Positions 15,255 to 55,844 of a stretch of 64,000 nt of DNA are shown here, piece after piece. Both the position numbers and the translations under genes were made by a program. The notes beneath the pieces were generated by a model. It was not told where the DNA came from. It was given only the letters and a program-made list of their open reading frames with translations, and did no database searches. Each line of letters begins with the position of its first letter. Within the stretch, counting starts at the first letter, position 1. The DNA is from Escherichia coli (GTDB taxonomy: Bacteria; Pseudomonadota; Gammaproteobacteria; Enterobacterales; Enterobacteriaceae): assembly GCF_001677475.2 (NCBI RefSeq), contig NZ_CP015229.1; one strand, 5' to 3'.

Positions 15255-15566
15255 ATGAGTGAAAAAGCAGGAACCAAAGGCGCGAAAGCCGCAAAGAACA
15301 GCGCTGCACAGGAAAACCCGGCACCGCTGGCAGACGTTATTGTGGCTGACGGTCAGGCGAATGAACCACGTCCGGCTGAAGACCCGGTTGCTGTACAGGG
15401 TGACGCCCCTGTCCGGCTGAACGTCCGGGCCGTGTCTGAAAACGGGTTCTGGCGCTGTGGCCGTTTCTGGTCACATGCCGGTGAGAATGTGGCGGTGATC
15501 GCTGCGGTTGCCACCCGCCTGATGGCAGAGCCGAATCTGATTGTCCGGGAAGCGGAGAAAGGCTGA
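15255..15566 (+). CDS. hypothetical head-associated protein
   Basis: 103 aa; Ala/Pro-rich N-terminus. Confidence 0.55.
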   Translation: MSEKAGTKGAKAAKNSAAQENPAPLADVIVADGQANEPRPAEDPVAVQGDAPVRLNVRAVSENGFWRCGRFWSHAGENVAVIAAVATRLMAEPNLIVREAEKG

Positions 15567-16003
15567 TGGGGTACATCACGCAGGAAGACCTGTTACGCGC
15601 GGACGGCAATCTTGTCTGGAACATGGCGATTAACCGGGAAACCAACGGGCTGGACGAGGACAAAATCCGTCAGGCCATCAGTGATGCCGAAGCGGAAATT
15701 GATTCGTTTCTGTCCCGCCGCTACCAGCTGCCGCTGGGAGTGACGGAAATCCCGCGCCCGCTGCAACGCGTGGCAGTATCGCTGGCGTTTTACTGGTTGT
15801 CAGAGCGTGACAATCAAATCACTGAGCTGATCCAGAAACGCTACGACGACGCCATTAAAACCCTGCGTGAGATGGCGAACGGCACCCGTGACCTGGGTCT
15901 GCCGACGTATGCCACCCCGGCAGAAACCGACCACGGGAAGATCATTGTAGTGGGTGCCAATGCCCGGCTGTTCACCCGTAACAACCTGAAAGGGGTGCTG
16001 TGA
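15566..16003 (+). CDS. head-tail joining protein (Mu gp36-like)
   Basis: 145 aa; ATG overlaps previous stop. Confidence 0.6.
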   Translation: MGYITQEDLLRADGNLVWNMAINRETNGLDEDKIRQAISDAEAEIDSFLSRRYQLPLGVTEIPRPLQRVAVSLAFYWLSERDNQITELIQKRYDDAIKTLREMANGTRDLGLPTYATPAETDHGKIIVVGANARLFTRNNLKGVL

Positions 16004-16545
16004 TGGGGATTTCTGTACAGGTCAGCGGTGACCAGCGTCTGGAGGATATCCGCCGCGCCGTTGAAAAGCTGGCAGATGGTTCATTGCAGGCAGAGCTGCT
16101 GGAAAGCATCGGTGCGGTGGTGGAATCACAGACCCGCCGCCGCATCATCGATGAGAAAACCAGTCCGGGTGGCGAACGCTGGCCGGACTGGTCTGACGGG
16201 TACAAAAAGACCCGCCACGGCAACCAGAGTCTGCTGCGCGGTGAAGGCCATCTGCTGGAGAGTATCCAGTACATCGTGGAAAACCGTGTGGTGCGTATCG
16301 GTTCACCGCTGGATTATGCCCGCATCATGAATGACGGCTTTTCCGGCAGTGTGCCGGTCAGCGCCCACAAACGGCTTATCTCGCAGTGTTTCGGGCGGGC
16401 GCTGAAATATCCGGTCTGGCAGACCGTCGGCGCACATAACCGCATGATGAACATTCCACAACGTGAATTTCTGGGGCTGTCTTCTGCCAACCAGCAGGAG
16501 CTGCAACAGGTTATCAGTCATTTCTGGAAGGAGGTTCTGCCATGA
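16003..16545 (+). CDS. virion morphogenesis protein (Mu G-like)
   Basis: 180 aa from ATG 16003. Confidence 0.6.
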   Translation: MGISVQVSGDQRLEDIRRAVEKLADGSLQAELLESIGAVVESQTRRRIIDEKTSPGGERWPDWSDGYKKTRHGNQSLLRGEGHLLESIQYIVENRVVRIGSPLDYARIMNDGFSGSVPVSAHKRLISQCFGRALKYPVWQTVGAHNRMMNIPQREFLGLSSANQQELQQVISHFWKEVLP

Positions 16546-23858: not shown

Positions 23859-24385
23859 ACGCCATTGCCCGCCGTCTGCGACTGATGGTTGACCGTGCCA
23901 TTGTCCGCATGGTGTCTGACAGTCTGGAGCGGCAGAACCTGCAAATCCAGACGCTGGCAGATGCCACCGACGACGACGTGGAACGCTTCCAGAACTACGG
24001 TTTTACATCCGTGCCGCCGGAAGGTTCTGAAGCCATAGTGCTGGCCGTTAGCGGGCGGCGTGACGGGCTGGTTGCCATCGCGGTGGAGGACAAGCGATGT
24101 CGCCCGAAAGGGCTGTCCCCCGGCGACGTCCGGCTGTATCACCAGGACGGCAAATCACATATCACGTTAAGGAAAGGCGGAATTATTGAAATCACAGGGG
24201 AACAATTAAACGTTTCAGGGAAAACGGTAAATCTCACCGCCGACGAATTACTGGCTATAAATGCAGGAAATATGAAATTCGTCGGTCCCTGTGAGTTTAC
24301 TGAAGATGTCAGAATCAACGGCAAATCTTTCAGCGAACACATTCATAAGGACGGCGACAATGAGAATACATCACCGCCCGTATGA
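23849..24385 (+). CDS. baseplate spike protein (gpV-like)
   Basis: 178 aa. Confidence 0.65.
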   Translation: MGLNAIARRLRLMVDRAIVRMVSDSLERQNLQIQTLADATDDDVERFQNYGFTSVPPEGSEAIVLAVSGRRDGLVAIAVEDKRCRPKGLSPGDVRLYHQDGKSHITLRKGGIIEITGEQLNVSGKTVNLTADELLAINAGNMKFVGPCEFTEDVRINGKSFSEHIHKDGDNENTSPPV

Positions 24386-24834
24386 CGACAGGAATCCGCT
24401 GGAATAACATGCTCTCACGGGGTGACATCACCGTCACCCATAACGGCCTCTCACTGGATGAGGGGCTGGTCACTCAGGTTCTTATCTGCCTTTTCACCGA
24501 TGCCCGTGCTGATGACGATGATGTCATTCCTGATGGTTCCGGCGACCCGCGCGGATGGCCGGGCGACACGTACAGCGATTTTTCGTGGGGTTCCCGCCTG
24601 TGGCTGCTTGAGCGCGAAAAACTGACGGAAGATGTCCGCCTGCGCGTGGAAGACTACGCGCGGTTGTCCATGCAACCGCTGCTGCGGGCCGGTTACGCCC
24701 GTAACGCCACCGTCACGGCCAGAATCATCGTCCCTGACCGTATTGCCTTTCAGGTGGTGTTAACCCGCCCGGACAAAACCACGCTCACAATTGAAATCAC
24801 CCGCCGATGGGAGGCCACCATTAATGCCGTATGA
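24382..24834 (+). CDS. baseplate protein (gpW/gp25-like)
   Basis: 150 aa. Confidence 0.65.
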   Translation: MTTGIRWNNMLSRGDITVTHNGLSLDEGLVTQVLICLFTDARADDDDVIPDGSGDPRGWPGDTYSDFSWGSRLWLLEREKLTEDVRLRVEDYARLSMQPLLRAGYARNATVTARIIVPDRIAFQVVLTRPDKTTLTIEITRRWEATINAV

Positions 24835-25900
24835 AATCCCCACGCTGGGCAAACTGATTGCCGACGGCGAAAAAGATATTGCGTATGAACTCGGCCTGCA
24901 AAAGCTGCCGCCTGTCAGTGTTGAGCAGGCACTGAACGTGTCATTCAGCAGTCAGGTCCGGGATTTATACGACCATCAGAGCTGGATTAAGGACCAGATA
25001 ATTCCGTCCACCGCGTCTGATGATGAAACCATTATCAAAACAGCAACGTATGAAGGGGTTATCCGCAAGCAGGCCACCTTTGCCAGCGGGCCGGTGACCT
25101 TCACCAGTCAGTCCCCCATTCCGGCAGAAACCCGGATGCAGTACGACACGAATCAGGTGTATCAGGTACTCACATCCGGCGAGGTACAGAACGGCGAGGT
25201 CACTGTCATCGTGCAGGCTGAAGAAGCCGGTGTTGCGGGCAATCTTGCTGCCGGTGCCGTGCTGACCCTGCTGTCCCCGTTGCCCGGAACGGGCAGCACA
25301 GGCGCGGTGACTGAAAGTGGCATCACCGGTGGCGCAGATATCGAATCCATCGCAGAGCTGCTGGACCGTCTGCTGTATGTGCGCCGTAATCCCCCGGTAG
25401 GTGGTGCGCTGCATGACTACGTGATATGGGCGCGTGAAGTGCCGGGCGTCAGCCGTGCGTGGGCGTGGGATGCGTGGCACGGCCCCGGCACGGTCGGGCT
25501 GGCATGGCTTTATGATGACCGTGAAGACATTATCCCCACACGGGACGACCTGAAGACCATGGAGCAGTATCTGTTCTGCCACAAACACCCGGCCACCGGC
25601 GTGATGGTGGGCAAACCGGGCGGCATCGAGGTCTGGCCGGTACAGGTCAGGCTGAAGAAAATCGACCTGTCCATCCGTCTGACACCGGACAGCCAGGCGA
25701 ACAGGAACGCCGTCCGGGCAAACCTGACCGCATTACAGAAAACGCTGGCCCCCGGTCAGATGCTGCCGGTGTCCTCGCTGCGCACGGCCATCGGTATGAC
25801 GTCCGGTATCACGGATTACTTTCTTAACATCGGGGAAGACACCACCAGTGATGTGGATGAGCTTATCACCATCGGGGAGGTGACATGGCTCACAGCGTGA
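24824..25900 (+). CDS. baseplate J-like protein
   Basis: 358 aa from ATG 24824 after GGGAGG. Confidence 0.75.
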   Translation: MPYEIPTLGKLIADGEKDIAYELGLQKLPPVSVEQALNVSFSSQVRDLYDHQSWIKDQIIPSTASDDETIIKTATYEGVIRKQATFASGPVTFTSQSPIPAETRMQYDTNQVYQVLTSGEVQNGEVTVIVQAEEAGVAGNLAAGAVLTLLSPLPGTGSTGAVTESGITGGADIESIAELLDRLLYVRRNPPVGGALHDYVIWAREVPGVSRAWAWDAWHGPGTVGLAWLYDDREDIIPTRDDLKTMEQYLFCHKHPATGVMVGKPGGIEVWPVQVRLKKIDLSIRLTPDSQANRNAVRANLTALQKTLAPGQMLPVSSLRTAIGMTSGITDYFLNIGEDTTSDVDELITIGEVTWLTA

Positions 25901-26469
25901 CGGAATGGCTGACCGCACTGCAACAGGTCATGCCACGGGGTAAGGCATGGCCTCGTGATAACGACGCGGATTTAAACCGCTTTTTAAGGGCACTGGCAGA
26001 GCGTTTAACCCGCGTTGAATACGATGCCTCGCGCCTGCATGTGGAGATGCGACCGGAAACCACGCTCCAGCTGCTGCCGGAGTGGGAGCAATATCTGGCG
26101 CTGCCGGAATGCGGAATTGCCGCCACCACAACGGAAGCCCGCCGCCGGGCCGTTGTGGAGAAATACCGCCGCAAAGGCGGGCTGGCAACCTGGCAGATTG
26201 AAGCCGCTGCGGCGGCGCTGGGCTTCACCATTAAGGTGACGGCCGTTCTGCCGCACCACTGCCTGCGTGACTGCATGTACCCGCTGCATCCGGCACGGTA
26301 TCGCTGGCTGCTGAAAGTGGAAGTCCCGGACAACGATGCCGGGCGGTTTACCTGTATTGATGACGTCATGACGCCATTAATCAGCGAACGTACCCGCGAG
26401 CTGGAATGCCTGCTGAAGCATTACCGGCTGGCGGGTACGGAATATGAATATTATTACACCGGAGAATAA
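25885..26469 (+). CDS. tail protein (Mu gp48-like)
   Basis: 194 aa. Confidence 0.65.
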   Translation: MAHSVTEWLTALQQVMPRGKAWPRDNDADLNRFLRALAERLTRVEYDASRLHVEMRPETTLQLLPEWEQYLALPECGIAATTTEARRRAVVEKYRRKGGLATWQIEAAAAALGFTIKVTAVLPHHCLRDCMYPLHPARYRWLLKVEVPDNDAGRFTCIDDVMTPLISERTRELECLLKHYRLAGTEYEYYYTGE

Positions 26470-26472
26470 TTT

Positions 26473-27468
26473 ATGTTTCACGTGGACAATAATACGGGTG
26501 TGCCTGTTATGCCGCCTGTTGCGGCTGAATTAAGCAAAACAACGCTTTATTTCACCGAAGGCGGGAACGGTATTCCACCCACTTATCCAGGACCAGACTG
26601 GTTTAATATTATTCAGTCTGAATTACTGAAAATTCTCGAAGAAGCCGGAATAACGCCGGATAAAGCAGATACCGGTCAGATAATGGCAGCCCTGAAAAAA
26701 CAGTTTATTACGAACAGTGGTTCAGCCGGAGCTATTGCCGGATTAACCGGTGAGAATAATACGTTCCCGTATTTTACCGGCGAAGACACAATGGCATTAA
26801 CGCCGCTCAGTGCGTTTGTGCGCAGTATTCTTGGAAAAAACAGCGGCAGTGAGTTTATTAAAGCAATTGGCCTGTCACCGGACACCCTTTTATCATCAGG
26901 GCGAATAACAGCATTAAGCGGTGGCTCACAGGGAGCAACCGGACTTCAGATGTACGAAGCGTATAACAACGGCTATCCCATTCCATACGGCAATGTGCTG
27001 CATCTGAAGGGGGGGACAGCGTCAGGTGAAGGCGAATTACTGATTGGCTGGAGTGGCACAAGTGGTGCACATGCCCCGGTTTACATCCGCTCAAGACGAG
27101 ACAATGACGAGGCGGAATGGTCTGAATGGGCACAGGTTTTTACCTCAAAAGACAGTTTCAACGCAGCAACTGCTACAAAACTCCAGACAGCCCGCAAGAT
27201 TAATAATGTGGCATTTGATGGCACCAGCGATATCACCATCAGCAGTACCGATTCTGGTGCTGTGCGTGATTTCAGATACACCAGCGAAGTGTTTCACAAT
27301 CCCGGAGGTAACGAAATCACCTGGACGTTTCGCGCGCCCTCAGGTTGCGTTTTGTCAGGTATTTACGTTCAGGAAACGGGAAGAAGTTCTTCGGATAACA
27401 TCGGCGGCGTGTATTACAAACAAACTCAGGTTTATATCAATGGCTCATGGCGCACCGTATCCGGTTAA
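26473..27468 (+). CDS. tail fibre protein (short)
   Basis: 331 aa; GGAG RBS; followed by chaperone-like gene. Confidence 0.7.
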   Translation: MFHVDNNTGVPVMPPVAAELSKTTLYFTEGGNGIPPTYPGPDWFNIIQSELLKILEEAGITPDKADTGQIMAALKKQFITNSGSAGAIAGLTGENNTFPYFTGEDTMALTPLSAFVRSILGKNSGSEFIKAIGLSPDTLLSSGRITALSGGSQGATGLQMYEAYNNGYPIPYGNVLHLKGGTASGEGELLIGWSGTSGAHAPVYIRSRRDNDEAEWSEWAQVFTSKDSFNAATATKLQTARKINNVAFDGTSDITISSTDSGAVRDFRYTSEVFHNPGGNEITWTFRAPSGCVLSGIYVQETGRSSSDNIGGVYYKQTQVYINGSWRTVSG

Positions 27469-27482
27469 TTAAGGAGAAAATA

Positions 27483-28013
27483 ATGGAACTCAGAAACGTC
27501 ACGCGTTATTACCCGGAAGAAATGCCTTATGGTGAAAACATTCAGTATTTCCGCAGTGAAGACGGACAGGATTTTTATGAATCACTGGATAAATTCACGA
27601 AGAAATACAAATTGTGTATTCACCCTGACACAGGCGTGATTTTTTCGATGGCGGAAGATGTGTCCCGTCTTTATCCGGCTGGTTTCACTATTGTGGAAGT
27701 GGACGAACTGCCGGAGGGTTTTGGCATTGAAGCCTGCTGGTATTACCTGGATGGCGAAGTGCTGCCGGTTCCGGTTGATTATTCGCAACTGGCAGAAAAG
27801 CAACGCCAGCGTCTTCTGGCTGAAGCCAGGGACATCACCTCCGACTGGCGAACCGAGCTGGATCTGGGCACCATCAGCGACGATGACAAAGCCCGTCTTA
27901 CGCAGTGGATGGCATATATCAAAGCGGTGAAGGCGCTGGATTTAAGCACCGTTACTGATGAAGCCTCCTTTAATGCCATCAACTGGCCGGAGCGTCCCGA
28001 TGCCGCAGCTTAA
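27483..28013 (+). CDS. tail fibre assembly chaperone
   Basis: 176 aa; AAGGAG RBS. Confidence 0.7.
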   Translation: MELRNVTRYYPEEMPYGENIQYFRSEDGQDFYESLDKFTKKYKLCIHPDTGVIFSMAEDVSRLYPAGFTIVEVDELPEGFGIEACWYYLDGEVLPVPVDYSQLAEKQRQRLLAEARDITSDWRTELDLGTISDDDKARLTQWMAYIKAVKALDLSTVTDEASFNAINWPERPDAAA

Positions 28014-30249
28014 AGGTGTGATTAAAACGCCCACGGGAGAAGCGCTGGGCGGCGCAACCATTACTCTGACCTCCCTGCACAACCGTGCAGGGATCCTGAA
28101 AGGTGTTTTCAGCCACGTAACCACACAGAGCGGGGAGTACGACTTTTCCGTTCAGCCGGGTGTGTACAGCGTTCGCCTGACACAAAGCGAACAGCGCCTT
28201 TCAGAAATCGGTGTCATTCGTGTTTATGAAGATTCACAGGACGGTTCACTGAATGATTTTCTGGGTGCAACCGATATTGACCTGCGCCCGGAAGCCCTGA
28301 AGAAATTCGAAGAACTGGCGCAACAGGCGCAGCAAAGCGCGGAAGAAGCCGGAGAGCACGCGGACGCGGCTGAACAGGCCCGCCAGGATACAGAAACCCT
28401 CGCCGGGGAAATACGGCAGGATGCAGAAGAAATTGCAGGCAATGTGCAGAAAGCTGAAGAGCTTGCCTCTGAAACCAGTCAGAATGCAGCCCGCGCAGAG
28501 CAGGCCGTTAAGGATGCCGACACGATAGTCCGGAAAGCGGTCGATAAACTTGCTGATGCTGCAACGCTGACCGGCGAGGCAAAAGCCAGTGCCAAAGCTG
28601 CCGCACAAAGCGAACAGAATGCGGAAAATCACGCTGATAATGCAGCACAAAGCGCACAGCAGACCGCACAGGATGTGCAGGCAACGGTAACAGCCCGCAG
28701 TGATGCGGAACGTTTTGCGGGTGAGGCAGAAAACAGCGCACAGTCATCAGGCACAGCGCGGGACGAATCAGTCGATGCCGCCGAACGCGCCCGCCTTTAT
28801 CATAATGCCGCATCATCAGCTGCAACCAGCGCGGAAAATGCAGCAAATGCTGCACTCGGGCATGAAAACAGCGCCGCCGAATACGCCCGACAGGCTAAAG
28901 CCAGCCAGGATGCAGGTGCAGACAATGCGCAGGAAGCGAAACAGTACAGGGATGAGGCGCAGCAGATAGTTGATGACCTGAATGCAACAAATGCCTCCAC
29001 GACAGAAAAAGGTCTGGTGCAACTGTGTAGTGATACGGACAACGACAGCGAGGAACTGGCTGCCACGCCAAAGGCTGTCAAAACCGTCATGGACGAGACG
29101 AAAACAAAAGCGCCACTGGACAGCCCGGCCTTCACCGGCACCCCAACCACCCCAACCCCACCGGATGATGCCGCCGGTCTGGAAGCAGCGAACGCAGCGT
29201 TTGTGCGCAAACTGCTTGCTGCGCTGGTTGGCTCATCGCCGGAAGTTCTGGACACCCTGAACGAGCTGGCAGCGGCGCTGGGCAATGACCCGAACTTTGC
29301 GACGACAATCACAAACGCGCTGGCAGGCAAACAACCGCTTAATGACGTCTTAACGGCAATCAGCGCACTGACGCAACGGGCAGATAATCTTCTGTACTTC
29401 AATACAGACGGGAATGCCTCACTGTCTCTGCTGTCAGAGAAGGGCCGCGCATTGCTGGCGCATGACACGGCTGAAGCCATGCGCACGGAGCTTGAGCTGA
29501 GCACGGCTGCGACGATGGAACCCCAGAGTGATATCCGTGACCGCACACCGGGCAGGCTGGCCCTGTCCGGGATGTATGGGTTTGGACAGGCATTCACCAG
29601 CGCCGAAGCTCTGTCATTTAACGGACAGGCTGATTTCGTTATATGGCTGCAGACAGTCACCCCGGGGCGTTATGCGGTCAGTATTGCGGACTCCTCCACG
29701 CTGCTGGTGGGCACCACGAAATTTAACGGTATCATTGATGTGATGTGGTCACCCTCTGATAACGATGGTTCAGACTCAGCGCGTAAATTCAAAACGCTGC
29801 TGTACTACAACCAGTATTACGAGGATGAGCACAGCATACATTGTATGCGTTATCGCTACAGTGGTAACAGCTGGAATGCAACATCAAGCCTTATTGTGTA
29901 TGACGGCAACTCCCTGGCATATCTGATGTCCTCAACCGCCGGTAATGGTCCGTTCTCATATTACCAATACCCGGCCGTCGGTGTGCCGATTATGGCGGTA
30001 TATCAGGGAGAAAGTTTTGGTGAAAATGCTTCTCTGGGACTCGGTGATACTGTGCCGGGTTCCCGTCTTGGTCCTCTGGCCATGAGTGCACAGGTTAGTG
30101 ATACAGGGACATACGCATCCTCACCGCAGGTTGTGATTGGCGGTGCCGGTGAATACAACTTCCCCGGTCGTTACACGGCGCTTTCGGGCCTGGGTAACAA
30201 TTATGGTACTCAGCGTGGCTTTATCGGTCTTTTTGTACGCATTGAGTAA
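28000..30249 (+). CDS. tail fibre protein (long, Ala-rich helical shaft)
   Basis: 750 aa from ATG 28000; long Ala/Glu/Gln-rich region and C-terminal receptor-binding-like region. Confidence 0.8.
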   Translation: MPQLKGVIKTPTGEALGGATITLTSLHNRAGILKGVFSHVTTQSGEYDFSVQPGVYSVRLTQSEQRLSEIGVIRVYEDSQDGSLNDFLGATDIDLRPEALKKFEELAQQAQQSAEEAGEHADAAEQARQDTETLAGEIRQDAEEIAGNVQKAEELASETSQNAARAEQAVKDADTIVRKAVDKLADAATLTGEAKASAKAAAQSEQNAENHADNAAQSAQQTAQDVQATVTARSDAERFAGEAENSAQSSGTARDESVDAAERARLYHNAASSAATSAENAANAALGHENSAAEYARQAKASQDAGADNAQEAKQYRDEAQQIVDDLNATNASTTEKGLVQLCSDTDNDSEELAATPKAVKTVMDETKTKAPLDSPAFTGTPTTPTPPDDAAGLEAANAAFVRKLLAALVGSSPEVLDTLNELAAALGNDPNFATTITNALAGKQPLNDVLTAISALTQRADNLLYFNTDGNASLSLLSEKGRALLAHDTAEAMRTELELSTAATMEPQSDIRDRTPGRLALSGMYGFGQAFTSAEALSFNGQADFVIWLQTVTPGRYAVSIADSSTLLVGTTKFNGIIDVMWSPSDNDGSDSARKFKTLLYYNQYYEDEHSIHCMRYRYSGNSWNATSSLIVYDGNSLAYLMSSTAGNGPFSYYQYPAVGVPIMAVYQGESFGENASLGLGDTVPGSRLGPLAMSAQVSDTGTYASSPQVVIGGAGEYNFPGRYTALSGLGNNYGTQRGFIGLFVRIE

Positions 30250-30263
30250 TGAGGAAATCAGGC

Positions 30264-30839
30264 ATGAAAATCAGAGCGGTGAAAGGTATCAGAAACGCAC
30301 ATTATCTTGAAAATGGTGCGGTTGACTGCGAGGTGTTATTTGAAGGTGAAACGGAGTTCGCCCTGTATACTGCCATACAGGATGATATGGCCCCGACAGG
30401 CCAGCACATCTGGCAGGAGCTGCAAAGCGGGAAATGGGGCGAAATCGCCCCGTTCACCGTCACGCCGGAACTTATTGCAGCGGCAAAGGATGCCAAAAGG
30501 CGGGAAATTGAGGCATGGCGCGACAGTCAGGAAAACGTTGAGTTTATTTTCACGTTTGATGGCCGTCGTTTTGATGGCGGAAAAACCTCGCAGTCACGCC
30601 TTGCCCCCGTGGTTGCAGCAGCGCAGGCCGGACTGCTTCCGGAGGGATTTTTCTGGACTGATGCGGATAATAACAACGTCGTACTGACCAGGGAGAAACT
30701 TATTGCGCTGAACGATGCCATGATGGTGGCCATGGTGGCGGAGGGCTTTAAAATCCACGAACGCCAGCGCGAGATGAAAGAGCAACTTTCCCTGCTGTCC
30801 ACACTGAGCGATATAAGAGCGTTAACGCCCGGTTATTAA
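30264..30839 (+). CDS. tail fibre assembly chaperone (second copy)
   Basis: 191 aa; GAGGAA RBS. Confidence 0.7.
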   Translation: MKIRAVKGIRNAHYLENGAVDCEVLFEGETEFALYTAIQDDMAPTGQHIWQELQSGKWGEIAPFTVTPELIAAAKDAKRREIEAWRDSQENVEFIFTFDGRRFDGGKTSQSRLAPVVAAAQAGLLPEGFFWTDADNNNVVLTREKLIALNDAMMVAMVAEGFKIHERQREMKEQLSLLSTLSDIRALTPGY

Positions 30840-30863
30840 GTCATCATTTTGTATAGTTTATAA

Positions 30864-30887
30864 CGATCGATACAATCGTATCGATCG
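30864..30887. promoter_or_regulatory. palindrome with two GATC sites upstream of com-mom (candidate Dam-sensitive operator)
   Basis: CGATCGATA-CAATCG-TATCGATCG, perfect 9-bp inverted repeat, GATC at 30865 and 30883. Confidence 0.5.
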
Positions 30888-30961
30888 TCAGTTTGCATCA
30901 TCTGTGATTAAATACCCTGGCCCTCAGGGCTATCGTATCTGGTTAATACACAGGTGGGATC

Positions 30962-31147
30962 ATGGATGCTGTTCGTTGTAAAAACTGCAATAAATTGCTG
31001 TTTAAAGGAAGTTTTAAGCATATAGAAATCAAATGCCCTCGTTGTAAACGTTACATTGTCATGTCGAGTGCCCGGGAGCATCCCACGGAGCTGTATTGTG
31101 GGAAAAGAGAAGAAATCACGCATCCTTACAAAACCCTGCGTTATTGA
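30962..31147 (+). CDS. com: Com zinc-finger translational activator of mom
   Basis: 61 aa; [33 protein letters not shown]...THPYKTLRY closely resembles Mu Com. Confidence 0.85.
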
Positions 31148-31793
31148 GTATGAAGGCCGTATTGTCGGCTATGGTTCAAGGGAACTGCGCGTTGAAACCA
31201 TATCCTGCTGGCTGGCCCGCACAATCATTCAGACAAAGCACTATTCCCGCCGTTTTGTGAATAACTCCTGGTTGCATCTGGGGGTATTCAGCGGACGTGA
31301 TCTGGTTGGCGTTCTCCAGTGGGGATACGCCCTTAATCCCAACTCAGGGCGTCGGGTCGTGCTGGAAACGGATAACCGGGGCTATATGGAACTGAACCGC
31401 ATGTGGTTACACGACGACATGCCCCGCAACTCTGAATCACGGGCTATCAGCTACGCACTGAAAACCATCAGGTTACTGTATCCATCAGTGGAGTGGGTTC
31501 AGTCCTTTGCAGACGAACGCTGCGGACGTGCAGGTGTTGTGTATCAGGCATCTAATTTTGATTTTATTGGTAGCCATGAAAGCACGTTCTACGAGCTGGA
31601 CGGCGAGTGGTATCACGAGATAACGATGAACGCGATTAAGCGTGGAGGACAACGAGGCGAGTATTTGCGGGCTAATAAGGAGCGGGCGGTGGTACACAAA
31701 TTTAATCAGTATCGCTACATCAGATTCCTGAACAAGCGCGCAAAAAAGCGACTAAATACTAAGCTATTCAGGATTCAGCCATACCCGAAGTGA
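31098..31793 (+). CDS. mom: Mom DNA adenine modification protein
   Basis: No in-frame ATG near 5' end; GTG 31098 (GGAG 9 nt upstream) gives 231 aa; overlaps com by 50 nt. Confidence 0.8.
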
Positions 31794-31814
31794 TCCCACG
31801 TAATGAATAAAAAA

Positions 31815-31837
31815 GCAGCGGCCAATGCCGCTGTTTT

Positions 31838-31838
<1 letters not shown>
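31815..31838 (+). terminator. rho-independent terminator after mom
   Basis: GCAGCGGC-CAAT-GCCGCTG then TTTT. Confidence 0.55.
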
Positions 31839-32244
<406 letters not shown>

Positions 32245-32356
32245 TTGTCATTTGTTACCGGTCAGTCTACACATTTCAGATGCTGCGTTAAAAAACCCAA
32301 GTACTTCAAGTAGCACATCGTCATCAACACCCAGCCCCAAGATACGGTGATAAAAT

Positions 32357-33390
32357 TCAAGCCTTAAGAGGCTTTGTGTATGTTCGTGTAATCCATCCAG
32401 TAATAAACTCGTCCCCTGATTTAACCTGCACGAAAAGCCATTGGCGATCTTTTTTATCTAAAACAGCCACTATAGTATTTTTGCCAATGCATTCAATCAC
32501 CTCACTATTTATAGAAGGACTGACGTGTAATCTTACGTTCTCACCAGTTATAAAACGAAAACCATTGAGATCTTCCCAACTAATTTCTTTGTTTTCTTTA
32601 ATTAATTGTTGTTTTGATATTGGTTTATCCTCAAACAGAGATATAAAATATGATTCTGCCTTGTGTATTCCCAGCAAGGTTTTCTCTTTTCCGTAATCAA
32701 TAAAAGCACCAAACACAACTTGAGAAAATATAACCATTAGTAACCATTGCAGTGGATAAGGAAGCTCTTTAAATGAATCAACAAACTTTGAGCTAGGTTT
32801 ATTTAATCCTTTATTTTGAACATTACTTTTGGTGTGTGATGTTTCAGTAGCACCTTCAGCATAAGCCTGCGCAATAGATGAAATCCCCTGCTCTATTATT
32901 TGATGTAATGAAGCATTTCTTGTTCTAGCATAGTGATCTAGTACTTTCTTTATGTCTTGGCTTACATCTGTTTTATAACTTGCACTTTGTTGTAATTCTT
33001 TAAGTATCGCTTGCATGTTATTTAAACCAGCTTGCTTATTAAGCACCTCAAGCTGTTTTCGTAATGGCATAGCTATTTCGGCCTGTTTCCTTAGCATTTG
33101 AATATATCTATTTGCGTCATGAGGGAAAAGAGCCTGAGTCTGTTTCTGTAAAATCGCGATATGTTCACGATACTTGCTGCCTATTCCAGCCAAGTTCGGC
33201 ATACTAGCCAATTGTTTTCGAAGAGAGTTACTAATTACAGCTTGTCTATTCAATCTTGTCATATTTTGAAAAGAATGTTTTTCTATTCCTAATTGTTTTT
33301 GCAAGATCGCTACGTGATCTTTGTATGATGGAATGAGCACTGACTGTTTATACAGTAACTTCAACTCATTAGAATTAGTAATTTTTGTCA
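32357..33390 (-). CDS. membrane protein with internal repeats and SH3-like C-terminal domain (sim-region)
   Basis: AT-rich; repeats HVAILQKQ / EHIAILQKQ, one TM, C-terminal beta-rich domain; start uncertain. Confidence 0.45.
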
Positions 33391-51692: not shown

Positions 51693-52590
51693 GCACTGGA
51701 AAAACATTACTATTTATAAACTTTCTCGTGAGGCGGATCTGACCGACTTAGAAGATAAAAAGAAAATGATCCTTTTCACGCCATGCGGTAGTCAGGATAT
51801 GGCCAAGTTCGGTTTTGTATCGCCATTTGGTGATAATTCCGAAGTTATCGCTATGCATGGAAATGGTTTTATCCTTGTTGAAGCAAAGCGCGAAACAAAA
51901 ATTCTTCCCCCGCCGGTTATCCAGCGAGCTATTCAAGAAAAAATTGAAAAACTTGAGCAAGAACAAGCGCGTAAACTGAAGAAAACAGAGAAGGATTCCC
52001 TGAAAGACGAAGTTCTGCATTCTCTTCTGCCACGGGCTTTTTCAAAGTTTTCTGTTATCCAGGCGATCTACGATGGTTCAACTAAACGTATCTATATCAA
52101 TGCCAGCGCGCGGCAGGCAGAGGATATGCTCGCACTTATGCGTAAGTCTCTGGGTTCTCTTCCTGTTGTTCCCCTAAGTGTTGAAAATCCCATTGAATTA
52201 ACGCTGACCGACTGGGTACGTGATGGTAGTGCTCCACAGGGATTTCAAATGGGGGATGCGGCAGAACTTAAGGCAGTGCTTGAGGATGGCGGTATTGCCC
52301 GAGTGAAAAAGCAGGATTTGGGAAGCGATGAAATTTCCACACACCTGGAAGCTGGCAAGCTCGTCACTAAGTTGGCACTCGACTGGCAGAACCGCATTAA
52401 ATTTACACTGGACCATAACTTCAGCCTTACCAGCGTCAAATTTGCGGATGAATTGCTTGAGCAGAACTCTGATATTGATAGTGAAGATGTTGCGCAGCGA
52501 CTGGACGCAGATTTCTTCCTGTTGACCAGTGAAATTTCGTGCCTGGTTGATGCTCTGGTAAATGCCCTTGGCGGAGAGGCTAAGCAGTGA
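51685..52590 (+). CDS. RdgC-like recombination-associated protein (hrdC position)
   Basis: 301 aa from ATG 51685; N-terminus [15 protein letters not shown] like RdgC MLWFKNLMVYRL. Confidence 0.7.
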
Positions 52591-55500
52591 AAGAGCTGTG
52601 CTATGGATCTGTTTGCAGTGGAATTGAAGCCGCGAGTATTGCCTGGGAACCGTTGGGTATGCGTCCGGCGTGGTTTGCTGAAATCGAGCCTTTTCCATCT
52701 GCCGTTCTTGCGCTCCGCTGGCCCCATGTCGCCAACCTTGGCGACATGACAAAACTTGCCAAAAAAGTCTTGGCTGGGGAAATCGAATCCCCTGACGTGC
52801 TCGTCGGGGGAACACCATGTTTTACCGCGGGGCATATGGTTCTTTGTAAAAATGGTTATAAACCAATAGAAGATGTTTGCCCTGGCGATTACGTAGTCAG
52901 TCATCTCGGGCGGTTACAACAAGTAAAAAGAGTTGGTTCAAAAATAGCTAATACGGGGTTACTTAATGCCGTTGGGCAGCCTTTAGGTATAAGAACAACC
53001 AATGACCATCCCTTCCTGGCTGTTCGGTGGAAAGCCCAAAACACCCGGAAAAATGGCACATATTTTAAGAGAGAGTTGTTGTCTGAACCGGAATGGCGAG
53101 CAGCATGTGATATGCCGGGATATCAATGGTGCGCTCTAACTAATTTCAATATTGCATCTCCAGATATTTGTTCTCGGTTCTTGTCTGAAGAACAGGCTAT
53201 GTATCTTGCGGGCGCTTATGTTGGCGATGGATATATTAGGAGATGGAGAGGTAAATCTAAGAAGGCGGTTGTTTTTGGCATAAATTGCCAGAAATTGAGA
53301 AAGTTTCATTGCCGCATACCAGAAAACATATTTTCCGTGGCAAGCGAAATCCGAGGGAGCATCAAAGTAACCTTGAATGATACGTGTTATGCCAATTGGC
53401 TTAATGAACATTTTGGCGAGTTAAGCCATGCTAAGCGTATCCCTGCATGGGTGATGTCGCATCCATTGCGTCATGTGTTTTTACAAGGCTATCTTGATAC
53501 TGATGGGACACCAAGTGGTAAAGCGGGATTTAGAATTAATAGTGTTAGTCCTGCGCTTGCTTGGGGCGTTGCGGGGTTGTCACAGACTTGTGGTTATGTT
53601 TCTTCGGTCAGCTTTATTGAAGTTGAGCCCAAAAAAGTGATCGAGGATCGCGTGGTAAATCAACGGAATTATTATCAGGTAACAATCTGCCCGCAGAAAT
53701 TGTCACGTAAATCAAGATTGGCTCATGGAATGCTTTTACGAACAGTCAAAGAGTTTAAATCGGTAGGCCTAGATACTGTATACAACATAGAAGTCGAAGG
53801 TGATCATTCCTATATCCTCAATGGTGCGGTGGTCCATAACTGTCAGGCATTCAGTATCGCGGGCTTACGTGGTGGGCTTGATGATGAACGCGGCGCGCTA
53901 ACTTTGAAGTATGTGGAGCTTGCAAATGCAATTGACGACAAACGGTCTGAGTCCTTCCTCAAACCGACAGTTATCGTCTGGGAAAATGTCCCAGGAGTCC
54001 TGTCATCGGCAGATAACGCCTTCGGATGTTTCCTTGCCGGATTGGCTGGAGAAGATGCGCCATTTGAACCAGGTGATCGACCTGAATCAGGAAAAAGTAA
54101 CGCGTTCTGGCGGTGGGATGGCAAAACCGGTTGCCATGCTCCAAAGTGGCCGCAGTGTGGTTGTATTTATGGACCGCAGCGAAAGGTGGCCTGGAGAATC
54201 CTTGATGCCCAATACTTCGGAGTGGCACAACGACGCCGACGCGTGTTTGTTGTCGCAAGTGCTCGAACAGACCTCGATCCCGCAACGGTACTTTTTGAGT
54301 TCGAAGGCGTGCGCCGGAATATTGCGCCGAGCCGAAAAAAGAAGGAAATCGCTTCCGCCATTATTGCAAATGGCGCTGCAATCAGTGGCGAAAGCCTAAA
54401 TCCATGCCTACACGCTGACATGCCACCCGGTATGAAATCGACGAAAGCCGTAAACGCTTTCAGGATGGCGGCATTTGGGGAATATATTGACGATGAAACC
54501 GCATCGACAGTAAAGGCAAGAGATTTTAAAGATGCCACTGACCTTGCCGTTTTTAGCAGCACAGGAGCAGGTTTTTGGTCAGAAGGGCATGGTACATTGC
54601 GGGCACGTGAGCAAGAAAGCCATGAGCATCTTGTTACATTGGCTTTTCCTGAGCGTATGAGCGGTACACAACATGCTGCAACTAAGAATACTTCACCATC
54701 TCTAATGGCTAAAAATCCAACAGCTGTTTGCTATGAAGTAAGAAACGCAGAAGTAGCTGTCCGCCGTCTTACCCCTGTCGAATGTGAAAGGCTGCAAGGT
54801 TTTCCTGATGGGCATACGTTGATCCCGACGGAAAAGCGTAAAAAAGTTAATTCAGATGAACTGGCATATCTTCGCAATCACTATCCAGATTTAAGCGAAG
54901 AAGAGGCCGCGATGCTTGCAGCTGACGGACCGCGTTACAAAGCGATCGGCAATAGTATGGCAATACCAGTAATGCGCTGGATTGGCGATCGGATTACTAA
55001 GGCCGTATGTCGGCAGAAAGAAGGAAGTGAAACAAAAGAGCGAAAAGTTAAACCAGCGGCAGAATTCGAACGGTCCATATTCAAATGGGCTGGTGGAAAA
55101 TTTGGTGTTCTGGAACAAATCTTTCGCTATTTGCCAGAAGGGAAGCGCCTGATTGAACCTTTCGTTGGTGGCGGAGCTGTCTTCATGAATGCCGGATACC
55201 AGGAAAATCTGCTAAATGATGTGAATGCTGACCTGATTAACTTTTACAAGACTCTGCAACGCGAGGCGCATTCACTTATCACTCTGGCACATCGTTTCTT
55301 CCAGGACTACAACACACAGGAAGGATACCTGGCAGTACGGAATGCGTTTAACAAACAAGTCTATGATGATTTACATCGCGCAGCGGCGTTTTTGTTCCTG
55401 AACCGACATTGTTTTAACGGATTGACGCGTTACAACCAGGCCGGTGAGTTCAATGTCGGTTACGGGAAGTATAAAACTCCGTATTTCCCATTACAGGAGA

Positions 55501-55844
55501 TGGAAGCCTTCCTCGGTGCGGAAGGGCGGTCTGAGTTTGTATGCGGTGATTTTGCAGCGGTGATTGAAGCTGCCGGAGAAGGAGATGTCATCTTTTGCGA
55601 TCCGCCGTATGAACCGCTTCCAAATACAGAGGGATTCACGAACTATTCCGGTCATGACTTTAAGTTTGAAGAGCAAAAACGCCTGGTGTCTCTGTTGACG
55701 GATGCTCATCGTCGAGGTGCAAAGGTTCTCATTACTAACAGTGGCGCGCCAAACATCAGAGAGCTTTATCATGACAGTGGCTTCAGAGTGGAACCTCTTT
55801 TTGCCAGACGTTCTGTGTCTTGTAAGGGGACACTCGAGGTGTAG
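52587..55844 (+). CDS. bifunctional DNA methyltransferase: C5-cytosine domain (interrupted by intein) fused to Dam-like N6-adenine domain
   Basis: 1085 aa; C5 motifs GGTP/CQAFS, ENV, QRRRR, RLQGFP, GNS; Dam motifs [10 protein letters not shown] and DPPY. Confidence 0.8.
52818..53840 (+). other. intein with LAGLIDADG homing-endonuclease domain inside the methyltransferase
   Basis: 341 aa from CFTAGHMV to GAVVHN followed by +1 Cys; TTNDH block; [11 protein letters not shown] and [11 protein letters not shown]. Confidence 0.7.

Follow-up and report, generated by a model that had tools for sequence, protein, structure and literature searches.

Contig NZ_CP015229.1 of Escherichia coli (RefSeq assembly GCF_001677475.2) carries a Mu-like prophage whose tail region encodes two consecutive pairs of tail fibre and helper genes, and we analysed a stretch of 64,000 nucleotides (nt) of this contig, hereafter the window, that includes them. 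The four genes, which we call fibre 1, helper 1, fibre 2 and helper 2, are all intact and lie on the + strand between the baseplate wedge gene and com/mom. Their coordinates come from a list of open reading frames (ORFs) and from PGAP calls in RM9088, an E. coli relative at 97% identity, and the two sources agree; the fibre and helper genes are already annotated automatically in RefSeq. The layout, with protein lengths in amino acids (aa), is as follows.

24824–25900, + strand: gp47-like baseplate J protein, 358 aa
25885–26469, + strand: gp48-like baseplate wedge protein (BW3), 194 aa, matching PF10076 Phage_Mu_Gp48 (E = 6e-32) and phrog_203, baseplate wedge
26473–27468, + strand: fibre 1, a Mu S-type baseplate fibre, 331 aa, conserved at its N-terminal anchor and mosaic distally
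27483–28013, + strand: helper 1, a U-like tail fibre assembly protein, 176 aa (Caudo_TAP, phrog_136)
28000–30249, + strand: fibre 2, a lambda Stf-type side fibre, 749 aa (PF08400, PF03406)
30264–30839, + strand: helper 2, a DUF4376 protein, 191 aa (PF14301, phrog_1141)
30840–30961, + strand: spacer of 122 base pairs (bp) between helper 2 and com, too small for a gene, putative com/mom control region
30962–31147, + strand: com, 61 aa
31068–31793, + strand: mom, 241 aa
about 31919: right end of the prophage, where homology among family members ends (31918–31922)

A preliminary description of this DNA had reported two tandem fibre/helper pairs, all on the + strand, and both the ORF list and the RM9088 calls bear this out. 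Its sizes for fibre 1 and the two helpers (331, 176 and 191 aa) hold, that for fibre 2 needs correcting from 750 to 749 aa, and com adjoins the pairs as reported, at a distance of 122 bp rather than within 120 bp. The first 14 nt of fibre 2 lie within helper 1, and the remaining junctions measure 3–14 nt, with a Shine–Dalgarno-like sequence before every start in the four-gene set (for helper 1, AAGGAG 7 nt 5′ of the ATG). Because the genes follow one another in one direction within the late tail operon, with such tight gaps and overlaps, all four are predicted to be made together, and their profile matches leave us in no doubt that the four ORFs are genuine genes. The tail itself is encoded as a contractile one of the Mu type, with sheath and tube genes and, at 24382–26469, wedge genes present, and with a gp48-like wedge protein that shares 30% aa identity with Mu gp48.

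The first pair has the make-up of a Mu S-type fibre with its U-type helper: an S docking N-terminus in the gene immediately behind gp48, with a Caudo_TAP gene next in line. Fibre 1 matches the tail fibre family phrog_1833 over its full length (E = 3e-107); its residues 1–124 are 39.5% identical to the N-terminus of Mu S, and residues 1–78 match the Mu S chains of PDB entries 5yvq and 9ki1 (E = 2e-22). Helper 1 matches Caudo_TAP (E = 2e-21) and phrog_136 (E = 5e-57) and aligns with Mu U and U′ over its full length at 24–31% identity. A cryo-electron microscopy study of Mu shows the N-terminus of its S fibre seated on a gp48 loop (PMC11915804), and by analogy the wedge protein encoded just upstream is the expected partner on which the N-terminus of fibre 1 would dock. 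Beyond the anchor, residues 124–248 share 64% identity with a portion of P1 Sv; among close relatives, residues 1–125 keep 84–98% identity while the distal part falls to 33–89% or is missing. Within this gene we also observed a G7 homopolymer at 27009–27015, the sole run of at least 7 in the four genes and probably not long enough for phase variation; none of the related loci holds an exact match to its flanks at which run length could be compared.

The second pair belongs elsewhere. Fibre 2 begins with the prophage tail fibre N-terminal domain PF08400, at 92.5 bits (E = 3e-26) against a Pfam gathering cut-off of 26.6 bits, and runs from this collar anchor (aa 1–95, 28000–28284) through an Ala/Gln-rich coiled coil and a Phage_fiber_2 repeat (PF03406, E = 2.5e-16) to a variable tip. 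Its N-terminus matches that of Ur-lambda Stf (StfN, PDB 9e7m, E = 3e-10), including the motif VYEDSQxGxLNDFL, and its residues 3–186 align over about 185 residues with residues 4–187 of gp40, the collar spike of the Vibrio myophage XM1 (PDB 7kjk, E = 2e-10), so that the elements of the XM1-type spike fold, a homologous immunoglobulin (Ig)-like N-terminal domain and then a trimeric coiled coil, are recognizable by sequence. In Ur-lambda Stf, residues 1–91 form a collar and 92–101 a linker, and 12 StfN domains build a collar round the gpV/gpM junction rings at the tail tip complex (PMC12617516); in XM1, the homologous domain fastens six gp40 trimers to gp4 and gp5 at the neck, where spikes of this type bind head-completion and tail-terminator proteins, and the collar-type N-terminal domain of 80alpha FibL attaches at the distal tail end, as cited in the XM1 paper (PMC10457771). 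Helper 2 matches PF14301 DUF4376 (E = 9e-20) and phrog_1141 (E = 5e-80) and, from its position and its co-variation with fibre 2, is presumed to be the assembly or tip protein of that fibre. Judged by its domains, the second pair is a fibre class of a different kind with its own start and anchor, and not a spare S/U set left behind after loss of an invertase.

This distinction bears on the closest known inversion systems, namely the G segment of Mu, D108 and SfMu, which occupies the same genome position from gp48 to com/mom and is inverted by Gin, and the C segment of P1, inverted by Cin. Our locus is like Mu in the S docking domain of fibre 1 and in the homology of helper 1 to U/U′; unlike the G and C segments, it has no invertase, no 34-bp inverted repeats and no opposed Sv′/U′ set, and its second fibre has a start codon of its own and an unrelated anchor. 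A tblastn search with Mu Gin returned nothing better than E = 5 over the whole window and no match at E ≤ 0.01 in 66 related loci (about 1 Mb), compared with 2e-129 for the Mu positive control. The left end of the prophage lies beyond the window and was checked in the relative RM9088 only, whose complete prophage (repressor, Ner-like, MuA, MuB, Gam, Mor, lysis, head and tail genes) has no recombinase annotated besides the MuA transposase and insertion sequence (IS) elements. The gix sequence gave 0 matches with up to 3 mismatches allowed, and its palindromic core, AAACCNNGGTTT, occurs at the chance rate. With a script that recovers the 34-nt gix repeats of Mu, the longest exact inverted repeat in 24000–33000 is 12 nt, compared with 11–15 nt in shuffled sequence. 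The statements of the preliminary description that there is no invertase gene and that no inverted repeats flank the pairs are both upheld.

A serine invertase, inverted crossover sites of about 26–34 bp and opposed fibre ends, the marks of the Gin/Cin switch class, were each sought and none was found, and we do not place the locus in that class. We also considered a relic crossover at about 26842, where Mu S homology passes into P1 Sv homology within fibre 1, and rejected it: the 18-nt inverted pair at 26834/31823 is unlike gix or cix, and its exact core of 12 nt is what chance would give. A diversity-generating retroelement (DGR), a shufflon and phase variation were set aside for want of long repeats and simple-sequence tracts. 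A DGR would call for a template/variable repeat pair of about 100 bp or more close to the 3′ end of the fibre gene; the longest direct-repeat family in 24000–33000 is 41 nt long at 61–71% identity and lies in the coiled-coil region (a reverse transcriptase was not searched for), and the fibre and helper genes contain no simple-sequence phase-variable tract besides the G7 run. The further idea of the preliminary description that the phage might use a different switching mechanism thus finds no footing in recombination sites, DGR-like repeats or phase-variable tracts beyond that one run. Fibres 1 and 2 have separate starts and different N-terminal domains, with no constant N-terminal part in common, and from the different anchor and own start of fibre 2 it follows that no switch is to be expected. 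The earlier comparison with Mu and P1 stands as to the absence of inversion; its framing is slightly off, since the second pair is no alternative set but has its own anchor.

The pairs could still be alternatives if the choice between them were made by differential translation, by a slipped strand or by an invertase acting in trans, for example Cin of a P1-like carrier. The DNA to the right of the prophage is 97–98% identical to P1; cin and the C segment occupy P1 31660–36480, about 10–15 kb from the insertion point, and their equivalent here would fall outside the window, to its left. A Cin encoded by the carrier replicon, if there is one, would nevertheless lack a target site in the Mu-like fibre region as far as the sequence can tell, there being no gix/cix-like site and no above-chance inverted repeat for any invertase. 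The G7 run in fibre 1, which might serve a slipped-strand choice, is a single short one; long DGR-type direct repeats are missing; the four genes share one strand and have complete, separate N-termini, and different anchors remove the need to choose. We give this explanation very little credence.

The arrangement is not peculiar to this contig. Among 5426 complete E. coli genomes, the backbone of gp47, gp48 and the fibre 1 N-terminus occurs in 48–53 (about 1%), and fibre 2 collar DNA in 45, each time abutting the helper 1 (tail fibre assembly) gene. Prophages of the family sit at flhA, mdtO, yehQ and further chromosomal sites, a variety to be expected of transposition. The gene order gp47, gp48, fibre 1, helper, fibre 2, helper, com, mom is common to the E. 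coli prophages and about 24 IMG/VR loci, and fibre 2 is intact (at least 450 aa; range 452–1054 aa) in 16 of the 21 evaluable loci.

Conservation within the family marks out both anchors. Across 24 family loci, aa 1–95 of the collar keep 80–99% identity (median 93%), which falls to 44–100% straight afterwards, in aa 96–150, a mosaic break that matches the collar/linker boundary of Ur-lambda Stf. The dN/dS ratios against the window are about 0.21 for the fibre 2 collar and 0.19 for the fibre 1 anchor, a sign that both anchors are under purifying selection across the family. The shaft DNA of fibre 2 is 84–86% identical at the nucleotide level to lambdoid stf genes, yet its collar shares no more than 43% identity with any lambdoid Stf among 50,697 phage records; on these comparisons, the anchor has passed down together with the Mu-like tail, with other prophages as trading partners for the distal parts. 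In 18 loci, similarity of the fibre 2 tip tracks that of helper 2 (Spearman 0.86), whereas helper 2 against the fibre 1 tip gives −0.24; the correlations of helper 1 are weak with the fibre 1 tip (0.46) and weak and not significant with the fibre 2 tip (0.32), and the tips of the two fibres assort independently.

The best reading of these data, which we hold with moderate confidence, is a virion that would carry two co-transcribed, constitutively made fibres at separate docking sites. As the two anchors are unrelated, the fibres would not compete for one site, and both are therefore likely to be present on each virion. The preliminary description had allowed that the phage may display both fibres; non-competing anchors, a single operon and purifying selection on both anchors argue for this, with co-display itself deduced from them. 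In such a virion the first ~95 residues of fibre 2 would be clamped as a collar on a ring-shaped virion protein that presents an exposed ring. The neck seems the likeliest place for it, as in XM1, because the tube of a contractile tail is hidden under its sheath and because XM1 sets the precedent. The long, highly mosaic fibre 2 might then make the first contact, with a surface glycan or porin, and the short baseplate fibre 1 would bind the terminal receptor and trigger contraction, a division of labour suggested by analogy with the two-receptor scheme of the BASEL preprint, in which one receptor-binding protein (RBP) serves the primary and one the terminal receptor. Host range would change by swaps of distal modules with other prophages, not by DNA inversion.

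Several observations weigh against this reading, first of all on the docking site. In sequence searches, the prophage adaptor, encoded at 15566–16003, matches Mu gp36 and no XM1 chains, and the prophage terminator, encoded at 16000–16545, has no sequence match in the PDB. Neck and wedge proteins are 92–99% identical family-wide, and the terminator is 96–99% identical in close relatives (IMG/VR neck regions), so that co-variation has no power to choose a partner for the collar. Fibre 2 might instead dock at the baseplate end, on a wedge or hub ring or by branching from fibre 1 (compare branched tailspikes and 80alpha FibL), with both fibres displayed all the same. The fibre genes adjoin baseplate genes, and collar-type Ig-like N-terminal domains also fix fibres distally, in the lambda Stf tip complex and in 80alpha FibL, which, with the lack of sequence similarity to XM1 neck proteins, favours this placement. 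The rings gripped by lambda StfN (tube and tube-initiator), however, are covered by sheath and wedges in a contractile tail, and XM1, which alone among myophages has a solved structure with a homologous domain, uses the neck; we regard docking at the baseplate as rather unlikely, if a serious contender.

Other points touch the second fibre as such. A single fibre or spike gene follows gp48 in Mu-like phages of Vibrio and Shewanella that are more distantly related; several copies within the family hold IS insertions or pseudogenes; the phage collection contains no isolated phage of the family, the best baseplate J match being 57% identical at the aa level (Klebsiella phage Kp4866-3); and, the loci being phylogenetically related, the p-values of the correlations above are optimistic. 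In the yehQ sublineage (locus L067, 8062–12113, from E. coli RIVM_C037134, with about 20 similar genomes; also L018), fibre 2 is reduced to 155 aa, a remnant of collar and short coil, and helper 2 is gone. Given this truncation, fibre 2 can be lost, at least in a resident prophage. The sublineage is apparently clonal; its gp48 is lengthened to 324 aa, and fibre 1 is preceded by an additional gene of 352 aa (phrog_8291, function unknown).

This truncation, the single fibre or spike gene of the distant phages and the 84–86% identity of the shaft DNA to lambdoid stf could together mean that fibre 2 and helper 2 are passenger DNA from a lambdoid prophage, outside the Mu-like virion, and that only fibre 1 works. 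We think this improbable. The collar is specific to the family (80–99% identity within it, against at most 43% to lambdoid proteins) and under purifying selection, and its DNA is restricted to this context among the 5426 E. coli genomes; the genes are translationally coupled within the tail operon, and the arrangement persists over many independent insertion sites while the distal modules are exchanged.

Two variant loci are consistent with a receptor-binding role for the second position. That of E. coli STEC719 (L004, 4813–7539) encodes a 301-aa collar-plus-shaft protein, a 100-aa ORF, a 456-aa SGNH/GDSL hydrolase and a 50-aa remnant of helper 2, which suggests an O-antigen-modifying enzyme in the place of the second receptor-binding protein; the other (L015) has a 605-aa fibre 2 without a recognizable helper 2. 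A sister lineage with a gp48 about 60% identical (L036, 9585–14505; also L028, L030, L031 and L034) also has two tandem fibres on the + strand, both with a Mu S-like N-terminus, in the order 251-aa fibre with a lambda-like C-terminus, 294-aa Caudo_TAP helper and 790-aa fibre. It lacks a PF08400 fibre, com/mom and Gin, and would amount to two fibres on one anchor type with no inversion switch.

The two-fibre virion proposed here would work in the manner of other phages with several RBPs. With Ur-lambda Stf–Tfa (PF08400), fibre 2 shares the collar, the coiled-coil shaft, the Phage_fiber_2 repeat and a helper gene downstream; it differs in belonging to a contractile Mu-type tail, in a collar at most 43% identical to lambdoid ones, and in a DUF4376 rather than a Caudo_TAP helper. 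With XM1 gp40 (PDB 7KJK) it shares the contractile tail, a homologous N-terminal domain and start of the coiled coil, and an RBP encoded separately for the baseplate, in our case as read from the genes alone; unlike fibre 2, gp40 has a tailspike-like domain at its end and a gene that stands apart from the baseplate genes, and no sequence similarity links the neck proteins of the two. Two RBPs that are constantly present and act in succession are likewise found in T5 (lateral and central fibres), T4 (long and short fibres) and others, and the roles proposed for our locus are putative ones taken from such comparison. Our literature searches found no description of a Mu-like phage with an Stf-type second fibre.

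Multi-fibre phages and collar-anchored fibres are already known, and the locus opens no new field; we see it as a modest variant. If both fibres are indeed on the virion, it would add a second route to a broader host range in Mu-type phages, a constant display of two fibres as opposed to DNA flipping. The sharp break after the collar offers a natural ‘plug point’ for lambdoid side-fibre modules on a contractile-tailed phage, of use for host-range engineering and for annotating ‘prophage tail fiber N-terminal domain’ proteins outside the lambdoid phages. Taken further, the collar could be a portable adaptor that mounts lambda-type shafts and tips from the siphovirus-prophage pool on the neck of a Mu-like contractile virion, so that two specificities are constitutive, simultaneous display replaces the inversion switch and RBP modules cross morphotypes; this wider proposal is tentative, and we would slightly sooner doubt it than assert it.

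To the right of the pairs, the com–mom DNA is 89% identical to that of Mu and Mom 95% identical at the aa level, whereas the structural proteins are only 24–40% identical to those of Mu and the structural region (6000–30000 of the window) has 56–60% GC, a strong mosaicism, by these values, between com–mom (30962–31793) and the structural region. The 122-bp spacer looks like a com/mom control region from its sequence, with GATC sites at 30865 and 30883; we take this close pair to resemble the methylation-controlled mom promoter (Pmom) of Mu. The gin gene of Mu stands immediately upstream of the spot equivalent to this spacer. Three direct copies of TATCTTGAATAAnTT at 31837–31908, just inside the right end of the prophage, are likely candidates for the transposase-binding sites of the attR end.

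Beyond this end, the DNA (31919–64000) is 97–98% identical to P1/P7 and to E. coli plasmids of about 100 kb, and the prophage entered at the equivalent of about P1 46293, within pmgC. From this P1-like right flank and the position in pmgC we conclude, by sequence comparison, that a P1-like phage-plasmid houses the Mu-like prophage. A 110-aa ORF on the − strand at 31871–32203 is probably the truncated pmgC. Further along, at 52587–55844 on the + strand, a 1085-aa ORF overlaps the region annotated as dmt in P1. It has intein-like Hint and LAGLIDADG domains alongside methyltransferase domains of the C5-cytosine and D12 N6-adenine types, and so has the look of a Dmt that carries an intein.

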